Shown here piece by piece: positions 15,134 through 35,520 of a stretch of 64,000 bases of DNA (within the stretch, counting starts at the first letter, position 1; the number at the start of each line of letters is the position of its first letter). This DNA is from Escherichia phage SSBS18_WS_10_728: sequence record MT322327.1; one strand, written 5' to 3'. The position numbers and the translations under genes were made by a program. The notes below the pieces were generated by a model that worked only from the letters and a program-made list of their open reading frames with translations, was not told the origin of the DNA and searched no databases.

Positions 15134-16243
15134 TTATTCTTGAGCGTCAGAACGAACGTCTACCAGCAACTGAGGACGAGTACAGTATGGCAGCATGTAA
15201 GAGTGAGCTTCGAAGTCAATACCCTCGTCACGGTCTTTTTCGTATTCGAATACGTACAGTTCCTGACCAAGTGTATTTGCATAACCCATCTTAGGGCATG
15301 GGCCATATGCCACTTCGAAGATGTTGTTTGCTTCACCCAGCATAGAAACGTTAGGGAAAGCGTGTCCTACACCTACAGTTCCATCCTGAGTAACACCATC
15401 AATGCTAACCAGAGTATGAACCTTACCACGCTTGTCTTTGAACTTACCGTTGTACTGGACAAACTTAACCCCACCGTAGTAGAAAGTGTTCATGTGAGCC
15501 TGAACGCCGTCAGTACCACCAGTTCTCAGAGAACCAGTAATCTGTTGCCAAGCCAGCGGAGTCTGTTGTGCAAGATAAGCGTCACGAATCTTAGGGTGTT
15601 TAGTCAGCTTGCTGAAGAATACACGGTCAACAACTACGTGAATTTCTTCACCGTTGATTACAGTGCCAGTCTTAGCTTCATCTTCCATGTGCATACGCAG
15701 TTCTTCAATAGAAGCGTCGATGTCAGCATTAGGGTTGTCAAGGTCGAAGTAAACAGTCTTCTTCTCAACGTCGAACTGCTTGTACAGGTCAGCGTACAGA
15801 GTACCACGAGCATCAACAACTTTACCCTTCAGAGCTTGCATAAACAGGAACTCACGAGTAATATCGAACTTGGTACGAATCTTCATCAGCTTCTTAGCAC
15901 GTACTACAGCTTCAGTAGTCAGTTCGTTTGCAGTGCCTGGCTGACGTACACCCTGAATTTCATCAGGAGTGATGCTTTCAACTTCTTTGAAGTACATCAT
16001 TGGGAAGCTGATTTGACGAACACGCTCAGGTGCGCTAGTCTCTGCTTTACGGCTGTCACGGTCTACCGCATCAAGCAAGCTAACATCCCAATCAGTCAAG
16101 TCCATAAGGAAAGTAGTTTGGGTGATTGGTGCTGAACGGAACAGACCTAAGTTGGAAATATACCCATAAGTATTTGGGATAGACTGGACTTCACCAGTCA
16201 GGTCAGCAAGGAAAAATCTGCTTTTTTCAGAATTAGTCAACAT
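15134..16243 (-). CDS. major capsid protein (HK97-fold type)
   Basis: 369 aa ORF downstream of protease/scaffold; size and sequence character of HK97-like MCP. Confidence 0.7.
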   Translation of the reverse strand: MLTNSEKSRFFLADLTGEVQSIPNTYGYISNLGLFRSAPITQTTFLMDLTDWDVSLLDAVDRDSRKAETSAPERVRQISFPMMYFKEVESITPDEIQGVRQPGTANELTTEAVVRAKKLMKIRTKFDITREFLFMQALKGKVVDARGTLYADLYKQFDVEKKTVYFDLDNPNADIDASIEELRMHMEDEAKTGTVINGEEIHVVVDRVFFSKLTKHPKIRDAYLAQQTPLAWQQITGSLRTGGTDGVQAHMNTFYYGGVKFVQYNGKFKDKRGKVHTLVSIDGVTQDGTVGVGHAFPNVSMLGEANNIFEVAYGPCPKMGYANTLGQELYVFEYEKDRDEGIDFEAHSYMLPYCTRPQLLVDVRSDAQE

Positions 16244-16276: not shown

Positions 16277-16654
16277 TTACAGGCCAGTTGGTACGAAATC
16301 AATACCTTTAGCAGCCAGAGCTGCCTTGACGCTCTCGGCATTAACACTTGATTCAAGAGTCAGCATGTCTTTCAGTTCTGCGTCACGGTGAATACCGACA
16401 ACTTTCAACTGACCATGATAAGACAGTTGCAGGTCTGCGTAGAAATTAACGATACATACAGAGTCTGCTTGGGCTTCTTCTCCAGCTTGTACCTTAGTAC
16501 CGTCTGCTTTCAGAACTTCACCTACACGGTATTCTGTTGAAGCAACTGGGGTGTACTCTTTACGAGAGTGGCCTGTTGGGGTAACCTGTTCCCAAAGAAT
16601 GATATCATTCAGAGGTTCTCTTTTACCTAACTTAGTAAAACCTTGATATGCCAT
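16277..16654 (-). CDS. putative capsid decoration/accessory protein
   Basis: 125 aa ORF between protease and major capsid genes. Confidence 0.35.
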   Translation of the reverse strand: MAYQGFTKLGKREPLNDIILWEQVTPTGHSRKEYTPVASTEYRVGEVLKADGTKVQAGEEAQADSVCIVNFYADLQLSYHGQLKVVGIHRDAELKDMLTLESSVNAESVKAALAAKGIDFVPTGL

Positions 16655-26583: not shown

Positions 26584-26660
26584 CCAGACCAAGTTTTAAA
26601 TTTTTTCAAAATTAAATTGGCTTGAAAATATCATACGTGCTTGCTGAATTTGGTCTTCTG
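26584..26660 (-). ncRNA. Y-like hairpin element, copy 2 (no tRNA-like domain)
   Basis: Same closing stem with compensatory change (CCAGACCA ... TGGTCTTCTG) and conserved CAGCAA motif next to the stem. Confidence 0.3.
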
Positions 26661-26748
26661 CTCCTTTAAAGAACACTCGTAAGAACCCTTTAAGGGAGGG
26701 GCTAAAATAGCCCTCTCAAAACATCATCTTGAAATACTTATTATAATT

Positions 26749-26826
26749 TGGCGGTTACGAAGGGATTTGAACCCTCATCATCTCCCGTGACAGGGGAGTA
26801 TTTTAACCAGATTAAACTACATAACC
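26749..26826 (-). tRNA. tRNA-Asp (anticodon GTC)
   Basis: Acceptor GGTTATG/CGTAACC, anticodon stem-loop CTCCC-CTGTCAC-GGGAG, T-arm GAGGG-TTCAAAT-CCCTT, G73. Confidence 0.7.
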
Positions 26827-26832
26827 TTTATT

Positions 26833-26920
26833 TGGTGTGCCGTGTAGGAGTCGAACCTACCGAGTCTCAATGACAAGGGATTTACAGTCCCCACCGCTAC
26901 CATCTACGGGATAACGACAC
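26833..26920 (-). tRNA. tRNA-Tyr (anticodon GTA), type II
   Basis: Acceptor GTGTCGT/ACGGCAC, anticodon stem-loop GGGGA-CTGTAAA-TCCCT, long variable arm, T-arm GTAGG-TTCGACT-CCTAC, A73. Confidence 0.65.
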
Positions 26921-26929
26921 ATTTAAATT

Positions 26930-27006
26930 TGGCGGTTAGTCAGGGATTCGAACCCTGTGCCATTCGCTTAACAGGCGACCGCACATACCTTATGTGCTTC
27001 CTAACC
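26930..27006 (-). tRNA. tRNA-Asn (anticodon GTT)
   Basis: D stem GCAC/GTGC, anticodon loop CTGTTAA, T-arm CAGGG-TTCGAAT-CCCTG, G73. Confidence 0.7.
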
Positions 27007-27037
27007 TTAATACATTGCCAGACCGTGTTTTTTCTTT

Positions 27038-27077
27038 TATCCGCAAAAAGTATTTTGTTGCTGAATACGGTCTTCTG
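27038..27077 (-). ncRNA. Y-like hairpin element, copy 3 (short)
   Basis: CCAGACCG ... TTGCTGAATACGGTCTTCTG with AT-rich interior, between tRNA-Asn and the second tRNA-Met. Confidence 0.3.
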
Positions 27078-27083
27078 CAAAAT

Positions 27084-27160
27084 TGGAGGCGGGTGCAGGA
27101 GTCGAACCTGCCGATACCATGCTAATGAGACATGTGAGACGCCCTTTCTCTATACCCGCA
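27084..27160 (-). tRNA. tRNA-Met (anticodon CAT), second copy; unpaired 1-72 hints at initiator
   Basis: Anticodon stem-loop CATGT-CTCATTA-GCATG, D stem GAGA/TCTC, T-arm GCAGG-TTCGACT-CCTGC; first acceptor pair mismatched. Confidence 0.55.
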
Positions 27161-27171
27161 ATTCTTAATGA

Positions 27172-27244
27172 CCAGACCAAATCTCTTCTTTGTCCGATTT
27201 ACCTTCAGATGAATAAGATTAAGTTTGCTGTAATTGGTCTTCTG
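27172..27244 (-). ncRNA. Y-like hairpin element, copy 4
   Basis: CCAGACCA ... TTGCTGTAATTGGTCTTCTG; covariation with copies 1 and 3 preserves pairing. Confidence 0.3.
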
Positions 27245-27251
27245 TCAAAAC

Positions 27252-27329
27252 TGGCGTTCCAGAAGGGATTTGAACCCTCAAATATCCACTTTGAAAGAGT
27301 GGTGACTTTACCATTTTGTCCACTGGAAC
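27252..27329 (-). tRNA. tRNA-Glu (anticodon TTC)
   Basis: Acceptor GTTCCAG/CTGGAAC, anticodon stem-loop CCACT-CTTTCAA-AGTGG, T-arm GAGGG-TTCAAAT-CCCTT, G73. Confidence 0.7.
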
Positions 27330-27336
27330 ATTAATT

Positions 27337-27413
27337 TGGTCTCTGTTGGAGGACTTGAACCTCCGGCCTTACCGCCCCAAACGGAACGCTCTACCAAGCT
27401 GAGCTAAACAGAG
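27337..27413 (-). tRNA. tRNA-Pro (anticodon TGG)
   Basis: Acceptor CTCTGTT/AACAGAG, D-arm GCTCAGCTTGGTAGAGC, anticodon loop TTTGGGG, T-arm GGAGG-TTCAAGT-CCTCC, A73. Confidence 0.7.
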
Positions 27414-27578: not shown

Positions 27579-28994
27579 TTACCAGATGTAACGGTCAATC
27601 ATTACTGCTTTGAGCATTACGCTGGTTGGGTCAAACTTCTCACCACCAAGCAGAGCTTTTAAAGTGGCTGGAGAGAACCCTGATACCATTGCTACACCGT
27701 TATCCTTAACAGATACTTCGCAAGTACCATTACGGTTTGCTAAGTACCAGAATACCAGTTGTGGCATTTCGTATCCAGCTTTTTTGTACTTACTACGAAT
27801 TGCTTCAAAGTTTGTACGACCATTTGCACCATCAACCTGATTAAACTCCATATCAGAGAAGATGATAAGCTTACTTGGCATATCTTTCTGAGTCAAGTTG
27901 TTTCTCTTACCTGTCTCAAGAATACGGTCAAAAGCTGCTTGTAAATTAGTTGAACCATACTCAACATGACGCATCACCTGACGATGACGGTTTCGTAAAT
28001 CACCACTCAGTTCGATGAAGTGAGGGTTTGTTGAGTAAACCATTAACTCATTCTTAAAGCAACCAGTATTGCGTTCTGCTACATACAAGGCAAGTGATAC
28101 ACCAATATCAAGTGCAGTGATTGAACCAAGATTCACCCAAGACATTGAGCTTGAAACATCAGTCATACACAAGATGTTCTCACCTTCTGCCATCCAGTTT
28201 GGTAGTGCTTTCCACTGCTCATTGGCAACATCTGCATTACCATGTTTGATAGACTTAATCACATCGTATGGGTAAACAGCACCAGCGTTAATCTTAGCCT
28301 CACCCTTTGAGAGTGACTCGATGTAAGCTTTGTAACGTTCTCCATCTTTACGGTTAAAGAGTTTTTGGTAACGTGCAGCAGCAAGAGAAGGAATCTTACT
28401 GTAGTCGATTTTACCAAACTCATTAGCAGAGATTTTTTGCTCAACTGTATCAGAAAGTGCAGACAACAGTGTGCGGTACTCTTTCTCACTCAAGTTAGCA
28501 AACTTGCAGAAACGTTTTACAAACTGTTTGTGGCGTGGTTTTACTCGTGGTAACCACTTGGCTGCTAAACCTGCTGTTTCAGGGTCTAGTAATGCTGCTT
28601 CTAAGTGCTTAAAGGCATCTGTCTCAAAACGAGTACCTACGAAGATTTTGAAGTCATCAAAACGACCAAGCTCTGCAATCTTATCCATAATGCGAAGAAC
28701 CTGTGTAGGCTCTAAAACTTTATCTTCAATTGCTTGAAGTAAAACAGTTCTGAAGGCTTTACGCTCACCCATACCTTCTCGTACATCTCGCATGTGAAGC
28801 AAAATACGAACTGCAACATCAACATCCTCACGCAAAGCTTTGTAGAACAAATCTGGTAAGATTTCTACATTACTACGGCTGGAACCAGCAGCTTTGTAAA
28901 AGTCCACAAGAGCAGACATTGATGAAGTATGGTTTACAGCACCATTTTCAGTTCGACCTGCATGAAGGTGCGCATGTTTAAATAATTCGCTCAT
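27579..28994 (-). CDS. vWA-domain protein with MIDAS motif; possible Ro60/Rsr-like
   Basis: 471 aa; N-terminal ~260 aa helical region plus C-terminal vWA-like region with DxSxS (CMTDVSSSMS); TROVE/Ro60 relationship is inference only. Confidence 0.55.
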   Translation of the reverse strand: MSELFKHAHLHAGRTENGAVNHTSSMSALVDFYKAAGSSRSNVEILPDLFYKALREDVDVAVRILLHMRDVREGMGERKAFRTVLLQAIEDKVLEPTQVLRIMDKIAELGRFDDFKIFVGTRFETDAFKHLEAALLDPETAGLAAKWLPRVKPRHKQFVKRFCKFANLSEKEYRTLLSALSDTVEQKISANEFGKIDYSKIPSLAAARYQKLFNRKDGERYKAYIESLSKGEAKINAGAVYPYDVIKSIKHGNADVANEQWKALPNWMAEGENILCMTDVSSSMSWVNLGSITALDIGVSLALYVAERNTGCFKNELMVYSTNPHFIELSGDLRNRHRQVMRHVEYGSTNLQAAFDRILETGKRNNLTQKDMPSKLIIFSDMEFNQVDGANGRTNFEAIRSKYKKAGYEMPQLVFWYLANRNGTCEVSVKDNGVAMVSGFSPATLKALLGGEKFDPTSVMLKAVMIDRYIW

Positions 28995-29075: not shown

Positions 29076-29447
29076 TTATTTTTTGAGAGTCGCTACAGCA
29101 GAGAACGTTGGTTTGTTATCTGTCTGAGGTTGACCAGCACTATCAGGGGTCTTCTTAGTGTCTGCTGCAAGTGCTTTCATCTCACCTGCTGAGTGAGTAA
29201 AGATGGTCTTACCGACCTCAATCATACTCTTGATGTTTACGTCATCTGTGTTTAACCCGAACTCTGCAAGCTTAGCAGCATCCCTTGTAACAATCGCCTC
29301 AAACAGCTTTGCAGCAAACTCAGCAGAATTATCAATGGTCAGTTGAGCTTTTACAAGTGAACTTTTGTTACGAGAGCCTTTTGGTCTTCCAGATGGGTTT
29401 CCAGATTGGCCTTTTTTAAACTGGCCTTTGTTTGTTCTGTTTTTCAT
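29076..29447 (-). CDS. small basic protein with KGQSGNPSGRPKG motif (DUF5681-like)
   Basis: 123 aa; N-terminal FKKGQSGNPSGRPKGSRNK motif common in small phage DNA-binding or terminase-small-like proteins. Confidence 0.5.
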   Translation of the reverse strand: MKNRTNKGQFKKGQSGNPSGRPKGSRNKSSLVKAQLTIDNSAEFAAKLFEAIVTRDAAKLAEFGLNTDDVNIKSMIEVGKTIFTHSAGEMKALAADTKKTPDSAGQPQTDNKPTFSAVATLKK

Positions 29448-29858: not shown

Positions 29859-30073
29859 AAATCGCAGATATTATAGATTTATATCAAACTGCAAAGAGTC
29901 ATGGCTATATAACCTCAATTGGAAAGAATAGTCACTATGATGCTTTGACTGGAATGTATTTCAGGGCAATGGCTCAATCTAGTGAACAACACTTAGTGGT
30001 TTCTTCCAGTGAGTTTACTTCGTTTCTCTATTGCAGCAAAATCATAAATCGCAGGAGAACTGAAAAATGTTAA
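29840..30073 (+). CDS. hypothetical protein
   Basis: 77 aa ORF with GAGG RBS; overlaps neighbours by a few nt. Confidence 0.35.
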   Translation: MCSSQLEIADIIDLYQTAKSHGYITSIGKNSHYDALTGMYFRAMAQSSEQHLVVSSSEFTSFLYCSKIINRRRTEKC

Positions 30074-30657
30074 CAGTAAGTTTTAATTACAATAGTGATG
30101 GCTCTGTATCAATTAATTCACCGTATGCAAATGACCTATTGAAAGAGTTAGTTAACCAGTGTGAAAGAGGTCTTCACTATGTTCCAAATTCTTTTAAGCA
30201 GAAGACTATCGCTAACAATCTGATGCGTGTGACGGTTACAACATCAAATCCAAACTATGATATTGATAGTGAAAGCCCTTATTCTTTAGTGGCTCTTGGA
30301 GAGTGTAGTCAATTTAAGCTTGTCTGCCACGACTCAGAAACATTTCTTAAGGTGTTTTCCAACCTTATTCACAATAATAAGTACGGGTATGTTGATGGTA
30401 GTGTAAACTTCTATCCAGCAAACTATACATGCCTATTGATTGATAATATGAGAAGTAGCAAGCAAGAGCCTACAGAAATCTCATTTGATGTGAACTCTAG
30501 TCCAGACGCAGAAACAAGTAATAACTTTGATATGAGTTACGCGCTATCACTTAGTAAGAAATCCGAGTTCATTGATTATGTCAATGGATTTGGTTTTAAG
30601 TTTGACGAGAACATGAATCTCAAAAAACTTAAGAACCTACTTAAGACCAAAGCTTAA
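30067..30657 (+). CDS. hypothetical protein
   Basis: 196 aa ORF with GGAG RBS. Confidence 0.45.
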   Translation: MLTVSFNYNSDGSVSINSPYANDLLKELVNQCERGLHYVPNSFKQKTIANNLMRVTVTTSNPNYDIDSESPYSLVALGECSQFKLVCHDSETFLKVFSNLIHNNKYGYVDGSVNFYPANYTCLLIDNMRSSKQEPTEISFDVNSSPDAETSNNFDMSYALSLSKKSEFIDYVNGFGFKFDENMNLKKLKNLLKTKA

Positions 30658-30704
30658 GTATAAACAGGGGCTAATGCCCCTTTATCTATTTATAAGGATA
30701 TTTA

Positions 30705-31076
30705 ATGAAGGCTAAGAGTGCAAAAGACTTTTATTGCTTCCTACAATCCTATATCAATTCCGTGGAGAAAGGTGATAGATATAATCTTAAAGATGTTATT
30801 ACATCACCTTTAACATGGAGACTTAGCAAATGGCCTGAAGAAGATATCACACCCACTAGTAAACAACCTACCTACATCCCAGATATTAATCTCCCAGATT
30901 CAGATAAGTTATTGTACCCAATGTTCCACATTGTTGGGCTTGGTACATTTCTTATGGATATCCAGTATGTAATTGGTAAGGGTTATAAGGTTGAAGGTAT
31001 TGTTGTTGGTGATGTATCTCCACAACATAAAGGCTATTTTAGATTAAACGCACGTTTAGAGGCTAAAAAGAAATGA
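30705..31076 (+). CDS. hypothetical protein, paralog of N-terminal domain of the Ig-like repeat protein
   Basis: 123 aa; alignable by eye to residues 1-120 of the next ORF (shared YxPDxxxPxSDxLLY and MDxQYxI motifs). Confidence 0.5.
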   Translation: MKAKSAKDFYCFLQSYINSVEKGDRYNLKDVITSPLTWRLSKWPEEDITPTSKQPTYIPDINLPDSDKLLYPMFHIVGLGTFLMDIQYVIGKGYKVEGIVVGDVSPQHKGYFRLNARLEAKKK

Positions 31077-32206
31077 TTAAAGCAAAGACTTACCCAGACT
31101 TCAAAGAATTTGTAAAAGGTTTCGTTGCAAATGTAAAGGCTGGTAAGAGATATGATTTTAGAACATATCAAGAAGCTATTTTACCACTCACCTATAGCTC
31201 ATATTGGCCTGAAGCTGATATTGCAGAGGTTGAGAAGTTTGACTACAAACCAGACTACAAAGTTCCTTTCAGTGATGAACTTCTTTACAGTGTTGGTGCA
31301 CAGATGAGAACTGCTGATTTCTTCATGGATTTACAGTATGCAATCATCAATGGTAAAGATGTTGACACAGTATATTGTGAATGGTTGGCAAGAGTTAAGC
31401 CGTTCTCAATGTTGAATGCTAAGTTGAAGGATGCCATTAAGCCACCAGTAATTACTCAGCAGCCAACAAACCAAACAGTCAATGAGGGTGGAGCACTTAC
31501 CCTAAGTGTTCTCGCAACCAATGCCACTGGGTATCAATGGAAGAAGGATGGTGAGGATATCTCAAGTGCCACTTCTGCAACTTACACAAAACAGTCGGTA
31601 GCTCCTTCTGATGCTGGCTCATACACTTGCGTTGTGTCTGGAGAGGGTGGAACAAGTGTCACCTCAGATGCAGCAACAGTTACTGTTAACGCACTACCTG
31701 TTATTACCAAGCAACCTTCTAGTCAGACTATCAATGAAGGTGGGAACATCAACTTAGCAGTGACTGCAACAGGTGCAACTGGTTACCAATGGAAGAAAGA
31801 TGGTGCTAACATCCCTTCAGCTACGAAGGCCAACTACAGCAAATCTGGTGCGCTTCCAGCAGATGCAGGTTCTTACACATGTGTTGTGACTGGTGCTGGA
31901 GGTTCTGTTACTTCTAGCCCTGCAACAATTACGGTAAAGGCTTTGCCAGTTATCACTCAACAGCCAGCAAATCAAGAAATCACTGAAGGAGAGACCTTAA
32001 CGCTGAATGTTGTGGCTACTGGTGCAACAGGTTATCAGTGGAAGAAAGGTGAGGAAGTCATCCCAGACGCAACTGCTGCAACTTACACCAAAGAAGGTGC
32101 AACCGCTGCTGATGCAGGAAGCTACACCTGTGTAGTGACTGGCGCAGGTGGCTCTGTAACATCTAATGCAGCAACAGTTACAGTTAACCCAACAGGGGAG
32201 GCATAA
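31073..32206 (+). CDS. Ig-like domain repeat protein (three tandem Ig-like domains)
   Basis: 377 aa; three ~80 aa repeats PVITQQPxNQxxNEG...ATGYQWKKDG...DAGSYTCVVTGAGGSVTS...ATVTV. Confidence 0.6.
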   Translation: MIKAKTYPDFKEFVKGFVANVKAGKRYDFRTYQEAILPLTYSSYWPEADIAEVEKFDYKPDYKVPFSDELLYSVGAQMRTADFFMDLQYAIINGKDVDTVYCEWLARVKPFSMLNAKLKDAIKPPVITQQPTNQTVNEGGALTLSVLATNATGYQWKKDGEDISSATSATYTKQSVAPSDAGSYTCVVSGEGGTSVTSDAATVTVNALPVITKQPSSQTINEGGNINLAVTATGATGYQWKKDGANIPSATKANYSKSGALPADAGSYTCVVTGAGGSVTSSPATITVKALPVITQQPANQEITEGETLTLNVVATGATGYQWKKGEEVIPDATAATYTKEGATAADAGSYTCVVTGAGGSVTSNAATVTVNPTGEA

Positions 32207-32670
32207 TGCAACTCTCAAGAAAAGGTTTAGAGGCTATTAAGTTCTTTGAAGGTCTGAAGTTAGAGGCTTACAAAGATTCTGCCGGAATCCCAACAATCGG
32301 GTATGGTACAATCCGTATTGACGGGAAACCTGTTAAGATGGGTATGAAAATCACGGCTGAACAAGCTGAACAGTATCTTCTCGCAGATGTTGAAAAGTTC
32401 GTTGCAGCAGTGAATAAAGCTATCAAGGTTCCAACTTCTCAGAATGAGTTTGACGCACTTGTAAGTGAAACATACAACATCGGTATCACAGCTATGCAGG
32501 ATTCTACATTTATCAAGCGCCACAATGCTGGTAATAAGGTAGGTTGTGCAGAAGCTATGCAGTGGTGGAACAAGGTCACAGTCAAGGGTAAGAAGGTCAC
32601 TTCAAACGGACTGAAAAACAGACGTAGAATGGAAGCTGACATTTATCTTGACAGTGTATACCCAAAGTAA
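32206..32670 (+). CDS. endolysin, GH24 lysozyme family
   Basis: 154 aa; EGLKLEAYKDSAGIPTIGYGT catalytic region typical of T4/lambda-type lysozymes. Confidence 0.85.
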   Translation: MQLSRKGLEAIKFFEGLKLEAYKDSAGIPTIGYGTIRIDGKPVKMGMKITAEQAEQYLLADVEKFVAAVNKAIKVPTSQNEFDALVSETYNIGITAMQDSTFIKRHNAGNKVGCAEAMQWWNKVTVKGKKVTSNGLKNRRRMEADIYLDSVYPK

Positions 32671-32680
32671 TATCTTCATA

Positions 32681-32704
32681 GGCTCCTTCGGGAGCCTTTT
32701 TTAT
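32681..32704 (+). terminator. intrinsic terminator
   Basis: GGCTCCTTCGGGAGCC hairpin followed by TTTTTT, right after endolysin stop. Confidence 0.7.
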
Positions 32705-32721
32705 TTTCTAAGGAGAACACT

Positions 32722-33120
32722 ATGAAGCTTTGGGCTAGTGACTTTGGGACTTTTAAGTACACTCGTAACGGTTCACTTGTACGCATCATTGGAAACAATG
32801 TAGTTTCAAGAGGTGACAAGGTGTATACACGGTTTACTGTAGAGCTTGTTGAACTGTCACCTATTGAGTCTGTGAACAATGGCATGTTCAAGTTTGAGAC
32901 TTACAATGTCAATGAGCATGGACAATTCAATCCTCTTGGTGAAAGTGGACTTGATATTATTTCAGAGCACCCATTGACAAAAGAGCAACTTGCAGGTTAC
33001 TATAAAACTGTTCTGGAAAGGCAGTTAGCAACACATGAACAAGAAGCTAACTACCATTTACAGCATTGCGAAACTTTAAGAGCAAAAATCGAACAAGCAG
33101 AGAGAGGTTTTTATGAATAA
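32722..33120 (+). CDS. hypothetical protein
   Basis: 132 aa ORF with AAGGAGA RBS. Confidence 0.45.
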   Translation: MKLWASDFGTFKYTRNGSLVRIIGNNVVSRGDKVYTRFTVELVELSPIESVNNGMFKFETYNVNEHGQFNPLGESGLDIISEHPLTKEQLAGYYKTVLERQLATHEQEANYHLQHCETLRAKIEQAERGFYE

Positions 33121-33508
33121 TAACAGTCATATCCACGTTAAAGTTGATGTCAGTCGTTACAGCGAAAATGAGGAACTAGACCTGCAAGATGCTCTTCTAT
33201 TTGAGAAGAATGGCAATCTCCATTTGCATTTTGAAGGTACAAATACGTACCTCCACAGATGCCGAGATGATGCAGACGGTTGTCCTGTTTTTGCTTGGTA
33301 TAATTTAGAGTTTCCTCTTTATGCCATCCACTATCCAGATGGTGGAGAAGACTGGACTACCCAATCAATCTTTGATGAACTTAACGGTATTCCTGTTGAG
33401 CAAGAAGAGCAAGAGCCTGTTGAACTCACCTTCACCTTCGTCAAAGAAGAAACGGTTGGTGATTTGTCAGTAACTGAAGCTATTCAGGTAACACAGGTTA
33501 TTCGTTAA
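33113..33508 (+). CDS. hypothetical protein
   Basis: 131 aa ORF, overlapping start-stop coupling. Confidence 0.45.
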   Translation: MNNNSHIHVKVDVSRYSENEELDLQDALLFEKNGNLHLHFEGTNTYLHRCRDDADGCPVFAWYNLEFPLYAIHYPDGGEDWTTQSIFDELNGIPVEQEEQEPVELTFTFVKEETVGDLSVTEAIQVTQVIR

Positions 33509-34786: not shown

Positions 34787-35020
34787 ATGCGTGGTGAAAG
34801 AATGAAAAAGCTAACTACAGTTGAAGATTACTACAAACTGTCCCTATTAGAACAATATCGTAGAAGTCAGAATATCAGGAAATGCTATGGCAAACACGCT
34901 GAAGGTGACTTTTACCGTTGCTACGATGCAGATTTAAAAGGTGTAACACCTAGAGGGAAAGTCCTGCAAAGACTTGTTGACCTTGAGTGGGACAAACGAT
35001 TGAGAGGGGTTGGGAAATGA
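34787..35020 (+). CDS. hypothetical protein
   Basis: 77 aa ORF. Confidence 0.35.
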   Translation: MRGERMKKLTTVEDYYKLSLLEQYRRSQNIRKCYGKHAEGDFYRCYDADLKGVTPRGKVLQRLVDLEWDKRLRGVGK

Positions 35021-35520
35021 TTTACGAAGAAAGATATAAGATAGATTATCAGGATACTCGTCATCATACTTCTTTGAGAGTAACCAAACCAAATGGAGAT
35101 ACTGGTATTATAGCACATTTTGGTGGTGATTATTGGTATGGCACAGGTTGCTTTGAAGGTTACAATAAAGAATACTTGAAAGCTTTCTACAGAGACTTTA
35201 CAAATGACTACAACAGGGTTGTTGACGAAAAGAATAAGTGCATTAAGCATGAACACCATGCCAGAGGTTGTTTAAGTACGGTAATGATACTGGCATTTTT
35301 CTTAGCAACATTACTGGCAGTATCAGCAATCAGTTACATAGCTCAAGATTTAACCATTACACAGATTACCGCAAAGGTATATGATGTCTGGTACTTGTAT
35401 GCTGTTCCTTTAGCTGGTATCATCATCTCACTAATGAGATTCAGAGTTCATAAGAAACGACTCAAGGACTCTGAGGTTAAACTTGAAGAGGTAAGTAAAG
35501 AATGCAACCTACAATTATAG
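35017..35520 (+). CDS. hypothetical membrane protein (two C-terminal TM helices)
   Basis: ORF-track ORF 34987..35520 trimmed to ATG at 35017 with GAGGGG RBS; hydrophobic VMILAFFLATLLAVSAISYI and AVPLAGIIISLM segments. Confidence 0.4.
   Translation: MIYEERYKIDYQDTRHHTSLRVTKPNGDTGIIAHFGGDYWYGTGCFEGYNKEYLKAFYRDFTNDYNRVVDEKNKCIKHEHHARGCLSTVMILAFFLATLLAVSAISYIAQDLTITQITAKVYDVWYLYAVPLAGIIISLMRFRVHKKRLKDSEVKLEEVSKECNLQL

Follow-up and report, generated by a model that had tools for sequence, protein, structure and literature searches.

We analysed a window of 64,000 nt from Escherichia phage SSBS18_WS_10_728 (MT322327.1), a Felixounavirus (Felix O1-like myophage); positions 30000-33200 are 91-94% identical over their full length to the same region in dozens of Felixounavirus genomes. 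Three plus-strand genes follow one another here and lie where a preliminary description had placed them (Table 1). The first encodes a paralogue of a capsid-binding domain (CapBD), the second a protein that carries such a domain ahead of three Ig-like domains and is called Hex-Dec below after its counterpart in phage Bas63, and the third an endolysin.

Table 1. Features of the Hex-Dec locus and of the capsid genes in the window
Feature	Position	Strand	Remarks
GC-rich hairpin AGGGGCTAATGCCCCT	30666..30681	+	Terminator-like; separates the paralogue from the 196-aa gene upstream of it
Stand-alone CapBD paralogue, 123 aa	30705..31076	+	phrog_4463
Probable Hex-Dec/gp20-type Hoc-like capsid decoration protein, 377 aa	31073..32206	+	phrog_3995; PDB match, Pfam and AF2
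CapBD of the 377-aa protein, residues 1-122	31073..31438	+	With R79 and R107
Ig-like (I-set/Ig_3) domain 1	31439..31690	+	Pfam; AF2 pLDDT about 95
Ig-like domain 2, internal unit	31691..31939	+	Missing in 294-aa (two-Ig) relatives
Ig-like domain 3 (terminal unit) and 5-aa tail	31940..32203	+	Counterpart of Bas63 Ig4
Endolysin, T4-type/GH24 lysozyme, 154 aa	32206..32670	+	PF00959 Phage_lysozyme, E 3.7e-41
Intrinsic terminator AGGCTCCTTCGGGAGCCT followed by a T-run	32680..32697	+	Strong; t35 of Felix O1 in its terminator table
Major capsid protein, HK97 fold, T=9 type	15134..16243	-	9ncf_A, E 3e-243; 9c2d_A, E 2e-233
Beta-tulip trimeric decoration protein (Dec/Sf14 gp33 orthologue)	16277..16654	-	9ncf_J, E 5e-74

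The start codons of the second and third genes overlap the preceding stop codons, and the junctions read ATGA (AAATGA) between the paralogue and Hex-Dec and TAATG between Hex-Dec and the endolysin. The ribosome-binding site of the paralogue, AAGGA, lies 8 nt upstream of the gene, while that of the endolysin, GGGGAGG, is located within the 3' end of Hex-Dec. Two hairpins flank the three genes; the upstream one, which is also kept in phages mio and fBSPA4, is possibly the 5' boundary of a three-gene unit, judging from the sequence. The junctions, together with terminator-like hairpins on both sides, bear out the plus-strand operon ending with the endolysin that the preliminary description had proposed. 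Its remark that the locus is far from the structural module also proved correct: the major capsid protein gene lies on the opposite strand at a distance of 14.8 kb, and 26 tRNA genes (22385-27413) lie between the capsid genes and Hex-Dec.

Residues 124-371 of Hex-Dec contain three matches to each of the Pfam models Ig_3 (E 1.3e-32), Ig_2 and I-set, and the three units (84, 83 and 83 aa, with a DNA period of 249-252 nt) are pairwise 65-69% identical. AF2 models them as three beta-sandwiches with pLDDT values of 94-97, in agreement with the three Ig-like repeats described earlier. In the full-length AF2 model of the 377-aa protein, the CapBD is unreliable (pLDDT 31-52), a problem that the Sf14 authors noted as well; because of this, our statements about the CapBD rest on the solved chains and on a paralogue-first model. 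Felixounaviruses carry one to four Ig domains (PMC12609058), and across the recovered loci carrying the gene, Hex-Dec is 210/211, 294/298, 377 or 461 aa long. When the units of these proteins were assigned to Ig1, Ig2 and Ig3 of the window, the two-Ig proteins consisted of Ig1 and Ig3, the three-Ig proteins of Ig1, Ig2 and Ig3, and the four-Ig proteins had one further internal unit. Therefore, the first and last units are retained while the internal ones come and go, and this pattern would be the expected product of unequal recombination between 250-nt repeats.

To identify the 377-aa protein, we searched its sequence against the PDB with phmmer. The search retrieved 9ncf_S ('Immunoglobulin-like domain protein', 460 aa) with an E value of 1.2e-293 and 9c2d_S/9c3a_S ('Putative tail protein', 372 aa) with an E value of 1.4e-169. 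The alignment to 9ncf_S spans residues 1-372, with an almost identical CapBD, and in a second aligned stretch residues 196-375 correspond to residues 279-458 of that chain. The CapBD is 86-99% identical to the CapBDs of relatives, and the anchor domain is 95-98% identical to those of close orthologues. The retrieved chains belong to icosahedral capsid reconstructions, 9NCF from Escherichia phage JohannRWettstein (Bas63; Sci Adv 2025, PMC12609058) and 9C2D/9C3A from Shigella phage Sf14 (Commun Biol 2025, PMC11821841; EMD-45155).

In both papers, Hex-Dec (Bas63) or gp20 (Sf14) is described as a Hoc-like decoration protein of a T=9 shell, with one monomer at the centre of each pentamer-proximal hexamer (PMC12609058, PMC11821841). 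Anchoring is achieved by the N-terminal ~118-122 residues, the CapBD, which is largely helical and pseudo-C2-symmetric; the Ig-like domains are flexible and unresolved, and the facet-centre hexamers show no density in either reconstruction (PMC12609058, PMC11821841). In 9C2D and 9NCF, the model covers residues 1-120/122 only. In Sf14, D221 in three subunits of the capsid protein is salt-bridged to R79 and R107 (PMC11821841). The 377-aa protein has both arginines, and the major capsid protein of the window has D221; the window also encodes the two shell partners seen in 9NCF/9C2D, a T=9-type HK97 capsid protein and a beta-tulip Dec. Moreover, the Bas63 paper places the Hex-Dec gene >10 kb outside the structural module (PMC12609058). 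Mass spectrometry detected gp36 (31.6 kDa, adjoining the lysin gp35) in Felix O1 virions (Felix O1 genome paper, 2010) and gp20 in Sf14 virions (PMC11821841). Collectively, the results indicate, with a probability that we put at about 0.9, that the 377-aa protein represents the hexamer decoration protein of Felixounavirus, known as Hex-Dec in Bas63 and gp20 in Sf14. Through its orthologues, the protein is already known and structurally solved, and the features that appeared puzzling are explained in print. The preliminary description had noted that Ig arrays of phages usually decorate capsids or tails and can mediate adhesion, and a decorating role is supported: it is on the capsid that cryo-EM finds the orthologues of Bas63 and Sf14, with the N-terminal domain in the hexamer centres. 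This domain is capsid-binding and has no enzyme-like structural neighbour.

Most GenBank records, PHROG 3995 and UniRef nevertheless label the protein as a tail protein. The Felix O1 paper (2010) named gp36 the 'major tail protein' after its detection in virions, and the label was then propagated. That the protein belongs to the tail is scarcely credible, since the cryo-EM models 9NCF and 9C2D place the orthologues in capsid density and so rule this reading out, the Bas63 authors explicitly call the tail annotation wrong (PMC12609058), and the genuine sheath and tube genes are located in the structural module. The 'tail protein' label on this family in GenBank and PHROG is a misannotation that traces to the Felix O1 genome paper. 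The outcome corrects this widespread label at the locus and replaces it with a structure-based function.

Based on the close orthologues, one 377-aa monomer would sit in the middle of every edge (pentamer-proximal) hexamer of the T=9 capsid, 60 in all, and the N-terminal CapBD (~120 aa) would be held there by R79/R107 salt bridges to D221 of three capsid-protein subunits. The 20 facet-centre hexamers would not be bound by this protein, and the three Ig-like domains would project outward as a flexible fibre. As in T4 Hoc, such a fibre might let the virion adhere weakly to glycans, to bacterial surfaces or to other virions; adhesion by this Ig array is only an analogy, and a literature search found no relevant functional tests (mucin, adhesion) of Hex-Dec in Felix O1-like phages. 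By the same comparison with T4 Hoc, the length of the fibre (1-4 domains) may be tuned by the gain and loss of internal repeat units.

The 123-aa product of the preceding gene shares 36% identity (E 4e-17) with the stretch from residue 2 to residue 119 of the 377-aa protein, so that the earlier view of it as a paralogue of the N-terminal domain alone is sound. A structure comparison of its model gives the fold of the Hex-Dec CapBD, and the CapBD is its only match across Pfam, NCBIfam and PDB. The protein matches phrog_4463, a family of 'unknown function', over its full length (E 2.7e-77). Its orthologues are Felix O1 ORF37 (NP_944851.1), Bas63 bas63_0125, Sf14 gp21 and SUSP1 agp126, and family members from Felixounavirus, Mooglevirus and Suspvirus share 66-99% identity. 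Neither the paralogue nor its homology to the Hex-Dec CapBD is mentioned in the Sf14 and Bas63 structural papers, and their models do not include the protein (PMC11821841, PMC12609058). The paralogue is the only part of the locus that the searched literature does not cover, and the remaining novelty is modest.

The order of paralogue and Hex-Dec is kept in 27 IMG/VR loci with overlaps of 4-8 nt, and in the metagenomic locus L034 the overlap is 1 nt. Similarly, an 87-kb metagenomic contig has a more divergent pair (P0097 and P0098) in the order 195-aa gene, paralogue, Hex-Dec and lysozyme. A CapBD profile search of 1.84 billion representative proteins returned only 12 clusters, the distant ones being single-copy and fused to Big_2, an Ig domain or a Lys/Ser-rich tail. 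One of these distant single-copy CapBD genes, P0103 in L039, has no Ig domain and takes the same place upstream of a lysozyme. Therefore, a CapBD gene beside the lysin is ancestral, and the CapBD duplication goes back to the ancestor that the Felix O1, Moogle and SUSP1 groups share.

Further comparisons concerned other possible relationships of these genes. A pairing like that of T4 inh and hoc was considered from a faint precomputed Pfam Phage_Inh_N match in the 185-aa upstream gene of a distant relative and was rejected; the match was not reproduced, and Phage_Inh_N is absent at E <= 10 in that 185-aa protein and in its 196-aa homologue in the window. BLASTP of the two halves found no internal L1/L2 pseudo-C2 duplication in either CapBD paralogue. 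Net charge as an argument for binding to an acidic hexamer centre was dropped; the paralogue of the window has a pI of 9.1, and charges in the family range from -4.3 to +4.9.

To assess selection on the paralogue, we compared substitution rates in 27 genomes by the Nei-Gojobori method. Its dN/dS is 0.13 at a median dS of 0.70, next to 0.04 for the Hex-Dec CapBD, 0.11 for Ig1, 0.07 for the lysin, and 0.07 and 0.12 for the flanking genes; its synonymous sites are less constrained than its non-synonymous ones. The reading frame is intact in about 230/252 genomes from three genera and also in a more distant metagenomic lineage, and 37 positions within residues 64-120 are invariant. By these sequence measures, the paralogue is evidently a real gene. 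A slowly decaying, functionless remnant of a tandem duplication is highly improbable and is strongly disfavoured by the selection signal, together with the intact frames and invariant positions. Such decay would agree with the absence of a fitness effect upon knockdown in SUSP1 (PMC11879866) and with one clade of 19 sequenced viable phages, among them SP116, mio and REP5-12, in which the start codon is lost and about 225 nt are deleted internally; however, a single loss event is seen here because all 19 deletions share one junction.

The most conserved stretch of the paralogue comprises residues 71-80 (YPMFHIVGLG), which are invariant in 23 distinct proteins and align with the Hex-Dec segment LYSVGAQMRT, the bearer of the anchor R79. 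In the paralogue, R79 and R107 of Hex-Dec are replaced by G78, which hardly varies within the family, and by Q107. The equivalent surface is therefore constrained in both proteins, with a different chemistry in each.

The Hex-Dec gene is expressed late, from the three-gene unit that ends with the endolysin. In Felix O1, RT-PCR assigned ORF36 and ORF37 to the late class, with a maximum at 60 min, together with the virion-protein ORFs 53, 63, 64, 73 and 77, while the lysin ORF35 and ORF38 peaked at 25 min. In the particle, the record differs between the two proteins. The paralogue is missing from the Felix O1 virion structural list (2010), which includes proteins of 9.7 and 11.7 kDa, and from the Sf14 virion-protein table (PMC11821841); in the main text and Table S1 labels for VpaE1 (2015), in which proteins identified by mass spectrometry were relabelled 'structural', it is still 'hypothetical'. 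If abundant, the paralogue should be detectable because it is predicted to give five tryptic peptides of 10-15 aa, among its peptides being DVITSPLTWR, WPEEDITPTSK, VEGIVVGDVSPQHK and QPTYIPDINLPDSDK. Virion presence, which the preliminary description had raised for either protein, thus stands for the 377-aa protein through the mass spectrometry of gp36 and gp20, and not for the paralogue, which was not found in virions.

A transcriptome-wide CRISPRi-ART screen of SUSP1 rated both genes 'Not Fit', with scores of -0.91 for the paralogue agp126 and -0.39 for Hex-Dec agp125 (PMC11879866, supplementary file 16); the lysin was likewise 'Not Fit', and the authors acknowledge false negatives (PMC11879866). 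The paralogue is dispensable, and any role in assembly would therefore be subtle. Collectively, the data support a conserved, late and non-essential protein that has a capsid-binding fold, lacks the known anchors and is not detected in mature particles.

We tentatively propose, at somewhat less than even odds, that the paralogue is a late, non-essential accessory factor of head morphogenesis that is not stoichiometric in the mature virion. It would contact capsid hexamers in another conformational state, or Hex-Dec itself, transiently and then leave the virion. The CapBD fold, the gene overlap with Hex-Dec, the late peak shared with morphogenesis genes and the dN/dS value are consistent with this proposal, as are the invariant YPMFHIVGLG stretch and the absence from virion lists despite suitable tryptic peptides. 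Against it stand the replacement of both anchoring arginines and the age of the negative virion proteomics, which date from 2010 and 2015.

The loss of both anchors, with Gly-Leu-Gly in the conserved patch versus Met-Arg-Thr in Hex-Dec, would also suit a protein that was re-purposed for a non-capsid function, directed at a host factor or a defence system, and kept only the ancestral fold. Its absence from virions and its dispensability on laboratory hosts, which is typical of accessory host-interaction genes, point the same way. However, co-transcription and translational coupling with Hex-Dec and a late peak shared with morphogenesis genes speak against it, and Pfam, NCBIfam and PDB give a CapBD match only; we consider re-purposing rather unlikely.

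Alternatively, the paralogue may be a second ligand of hexamer centres, overlooked in the icosahedrally averaged maps and in the older proteomes, either as an Ig-less facet-centre cap or as a transient prohead plug that Hex-Dec replaces after expansion; this we regard as unlikely. If it were true, a decoration protein and its truncated paralogue would divide the hexamers of one capsid. Less probable still is a permanent decoration protein of the virion without Ig domains, which would cap the 20 facet-centre hexamers or share the edge hexamers and thereby set the density of Ig fibres. The shared fold, the late expression, the translational coupling to Hex-Dec through overlapping codons and the invariant segment aligned with the capsid-contact region would all fit such a cap, and the lone P0103 gene indicates that a bare CapBD can be a functional form. 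Both cryo-EM papers, in contrast, report the other hexamers to be without density. This observation is not decisive for the facet centres because icosahedral averaging smears a monomer that sits on a true 3-fold axis. A permanent cap is further disfavoured by the substitution of R79 and R107 and by the virion inventories, in which Felix O1 proteins as small as 9.7 and 11.7 kDa were found without it and the consulted VpaE1 labels do not flag it as structural.

The paralogue is thus a modest but concrete and readily testable lead, and natural deletion strains exist for comparison. It could reveal how decoration proteins choose among quasi-equivalent hexamers and whether phages control how densely Ig fibres cover their surface. 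This density matters for the engineering of Felix O1-type phages for Salmonella and E. coli biocontrol and for phage display.

To place the 377-aa protein among known decoration proteins, we compared it with those of Bas63, Sf14, T5 and T4. With Bas63 Hex-Dec and Sf14 gp20 it shares full-length orthology, the same CapBD (R79, R107) and the same I-set Ig array, and their genomes have the same order of paralogue, Hex-Dec and endolysin as well as the same capsid protein and beta-tulip Dec. The proteins differ just in how many Ig domains they carry, with three here, four in Bas63, whose Ig3 is missing here, and three in Sf14. Judged by eye on the alignment, the Ig part diverges by a few percent from Bas63 and by about 30-35% from Sf14.

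T5 pb10 (5LXK, 8ZVI) resembles the 377-aa protein in its N-terminal capsid-binding domain, C-terminal Ig-like domain and binding to hexamer centres. The Ig domain of pb10 is detectably similar (E 3e-12), and the match to 8zvi_a covers chain residues 77-160 only. In contrast, pb10 has a single Ig domain and is found on every one of the 120 hexamers of a T=13 capsid. Membership of the pb10 family was rejected, as the pb10-type capsid-binding domain was unmatched in sequence and structure comparisons.

Similar to T4 Hoc, the 377-aa protein would be a hexamer-centre monomer that displays several Ig-like domains in a row; it is non-essential, and its gene lies apart from the main block of head genes. 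Its Ig region matches Hoc-like PHROGs (phrog_2973, E 7e-44), and this match is confined to the Ig part. The CapBD, however, is C-terminal in Hoc and N-terminal here, so the domain order is reversed, and only a subset of hexamers of a T=9 shell would be bound. Furthermore, the Bas63 authors describe this CapBD as larger than that of Hoc, topologically distinct and pseudo-C2-symmetric (PMC12609058), and no Hoc CapBD is among the structural neighbours of the paralogue model. Membership of the Hoc family, for which N-terminal Ig domains and a C-terminal Hoc-type CapBD were looked for, was rejected on this architecture. The 377-aa protein would work like T4 Hoc without being a member of its family.

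Based on comparison of the window with the related loci that carry a gene for the Hoc-like capsid decoration protein Hex-Dec (L001–L030 apart from L008 and L011), the Ig-like region of this protein (31439-32203 in the window) varies in a modular manner, and close relatives possess one to four Ig units. It is the first and the last unit that are kept. Hex-Dec proteins with two units consist of Ig1 and Ig3, and the additional units of the three- and four-Ig forms are internal.

The surroundings of the Hex-Dec block are listed in the table. The tRNA array separates the packaging and head module from the Hex-Dec unit, and small ORFs and two conserved DUF genes are scattered among its tRNA genes. 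Additionally, transcription of the DUF2828/DUF7788 gene, whose relatives are annotated as 'RNA-binding protein' or 'vWFA protein', and of the DUF5681 gene diverges from that of the Hex-Dec block. To our knowledge, no holin adjoins the lysin in the Felix O1-like phage group; therefore, the 177-aa ORF located 2.3 kb 3' of the endolysin could be a candidate lysis-membrane protein. It contains two hydrophobic stretches, both in the C-terminal half, and gave no match in Pfam.

Features of the Hex-Dec surroundings in the window and matches in other records
Feature	Sequence	Coordinates	Strand
Array of 26 tRNA genes	window	22385-27413	-
DUF7217 gene, within tRNA array	window	22559-23356	-
DUF7338 gene, within tRNA array	window	23745-24302	-
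DUF2828/DUF7788 protein gene	window	27579-28994	-
DUF5681 protein gene	window	29076-29447	-
177-aa ORF, GTG start	window	34987-35520	+
Paralogue match	GenBank GU169904.1 'Staphylococcus phage SA1'	143190-143558	
Distant CapBD member P0099	L036	869-1489	
Distant CapBD member P0101	L037	2179-2868	
Distant CapBD member P0103	L039	5001-5462	

The 123-aa paralogue of the capsid-binding domain at the N terminus (CapBD) is named 'Tail protein' in UniRef (P0001, P0003, P0011, P0015, P0023, P0039), apparently because the wrong label of the neighboring Hex-Dec spread via the common domain. Moreover, a Felix O1-type pair of the paralogue and a 'putative tail protein' (85% amino-acid identity) lies inside GU169904.1; this record of 147 kb bears the name of a Staphylococcus phage, and Felix O1-like sequence was probably mixed into it.

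The CapBD family is very small: 1.84 billion representative proteins yielded 12 clusters. Its distant members carry CapBD fused to other display modules: Big_2, one Ig, or a disordered tail rich in Lys and Ser. L039, a distant metagenomic phage, again has a lone CapBD gene immediately 5' of a lysozyme gene, and this CapBD-lysozyme unit is bordered by DUF2828 and DUF5681 genes, the same pair as in the window.
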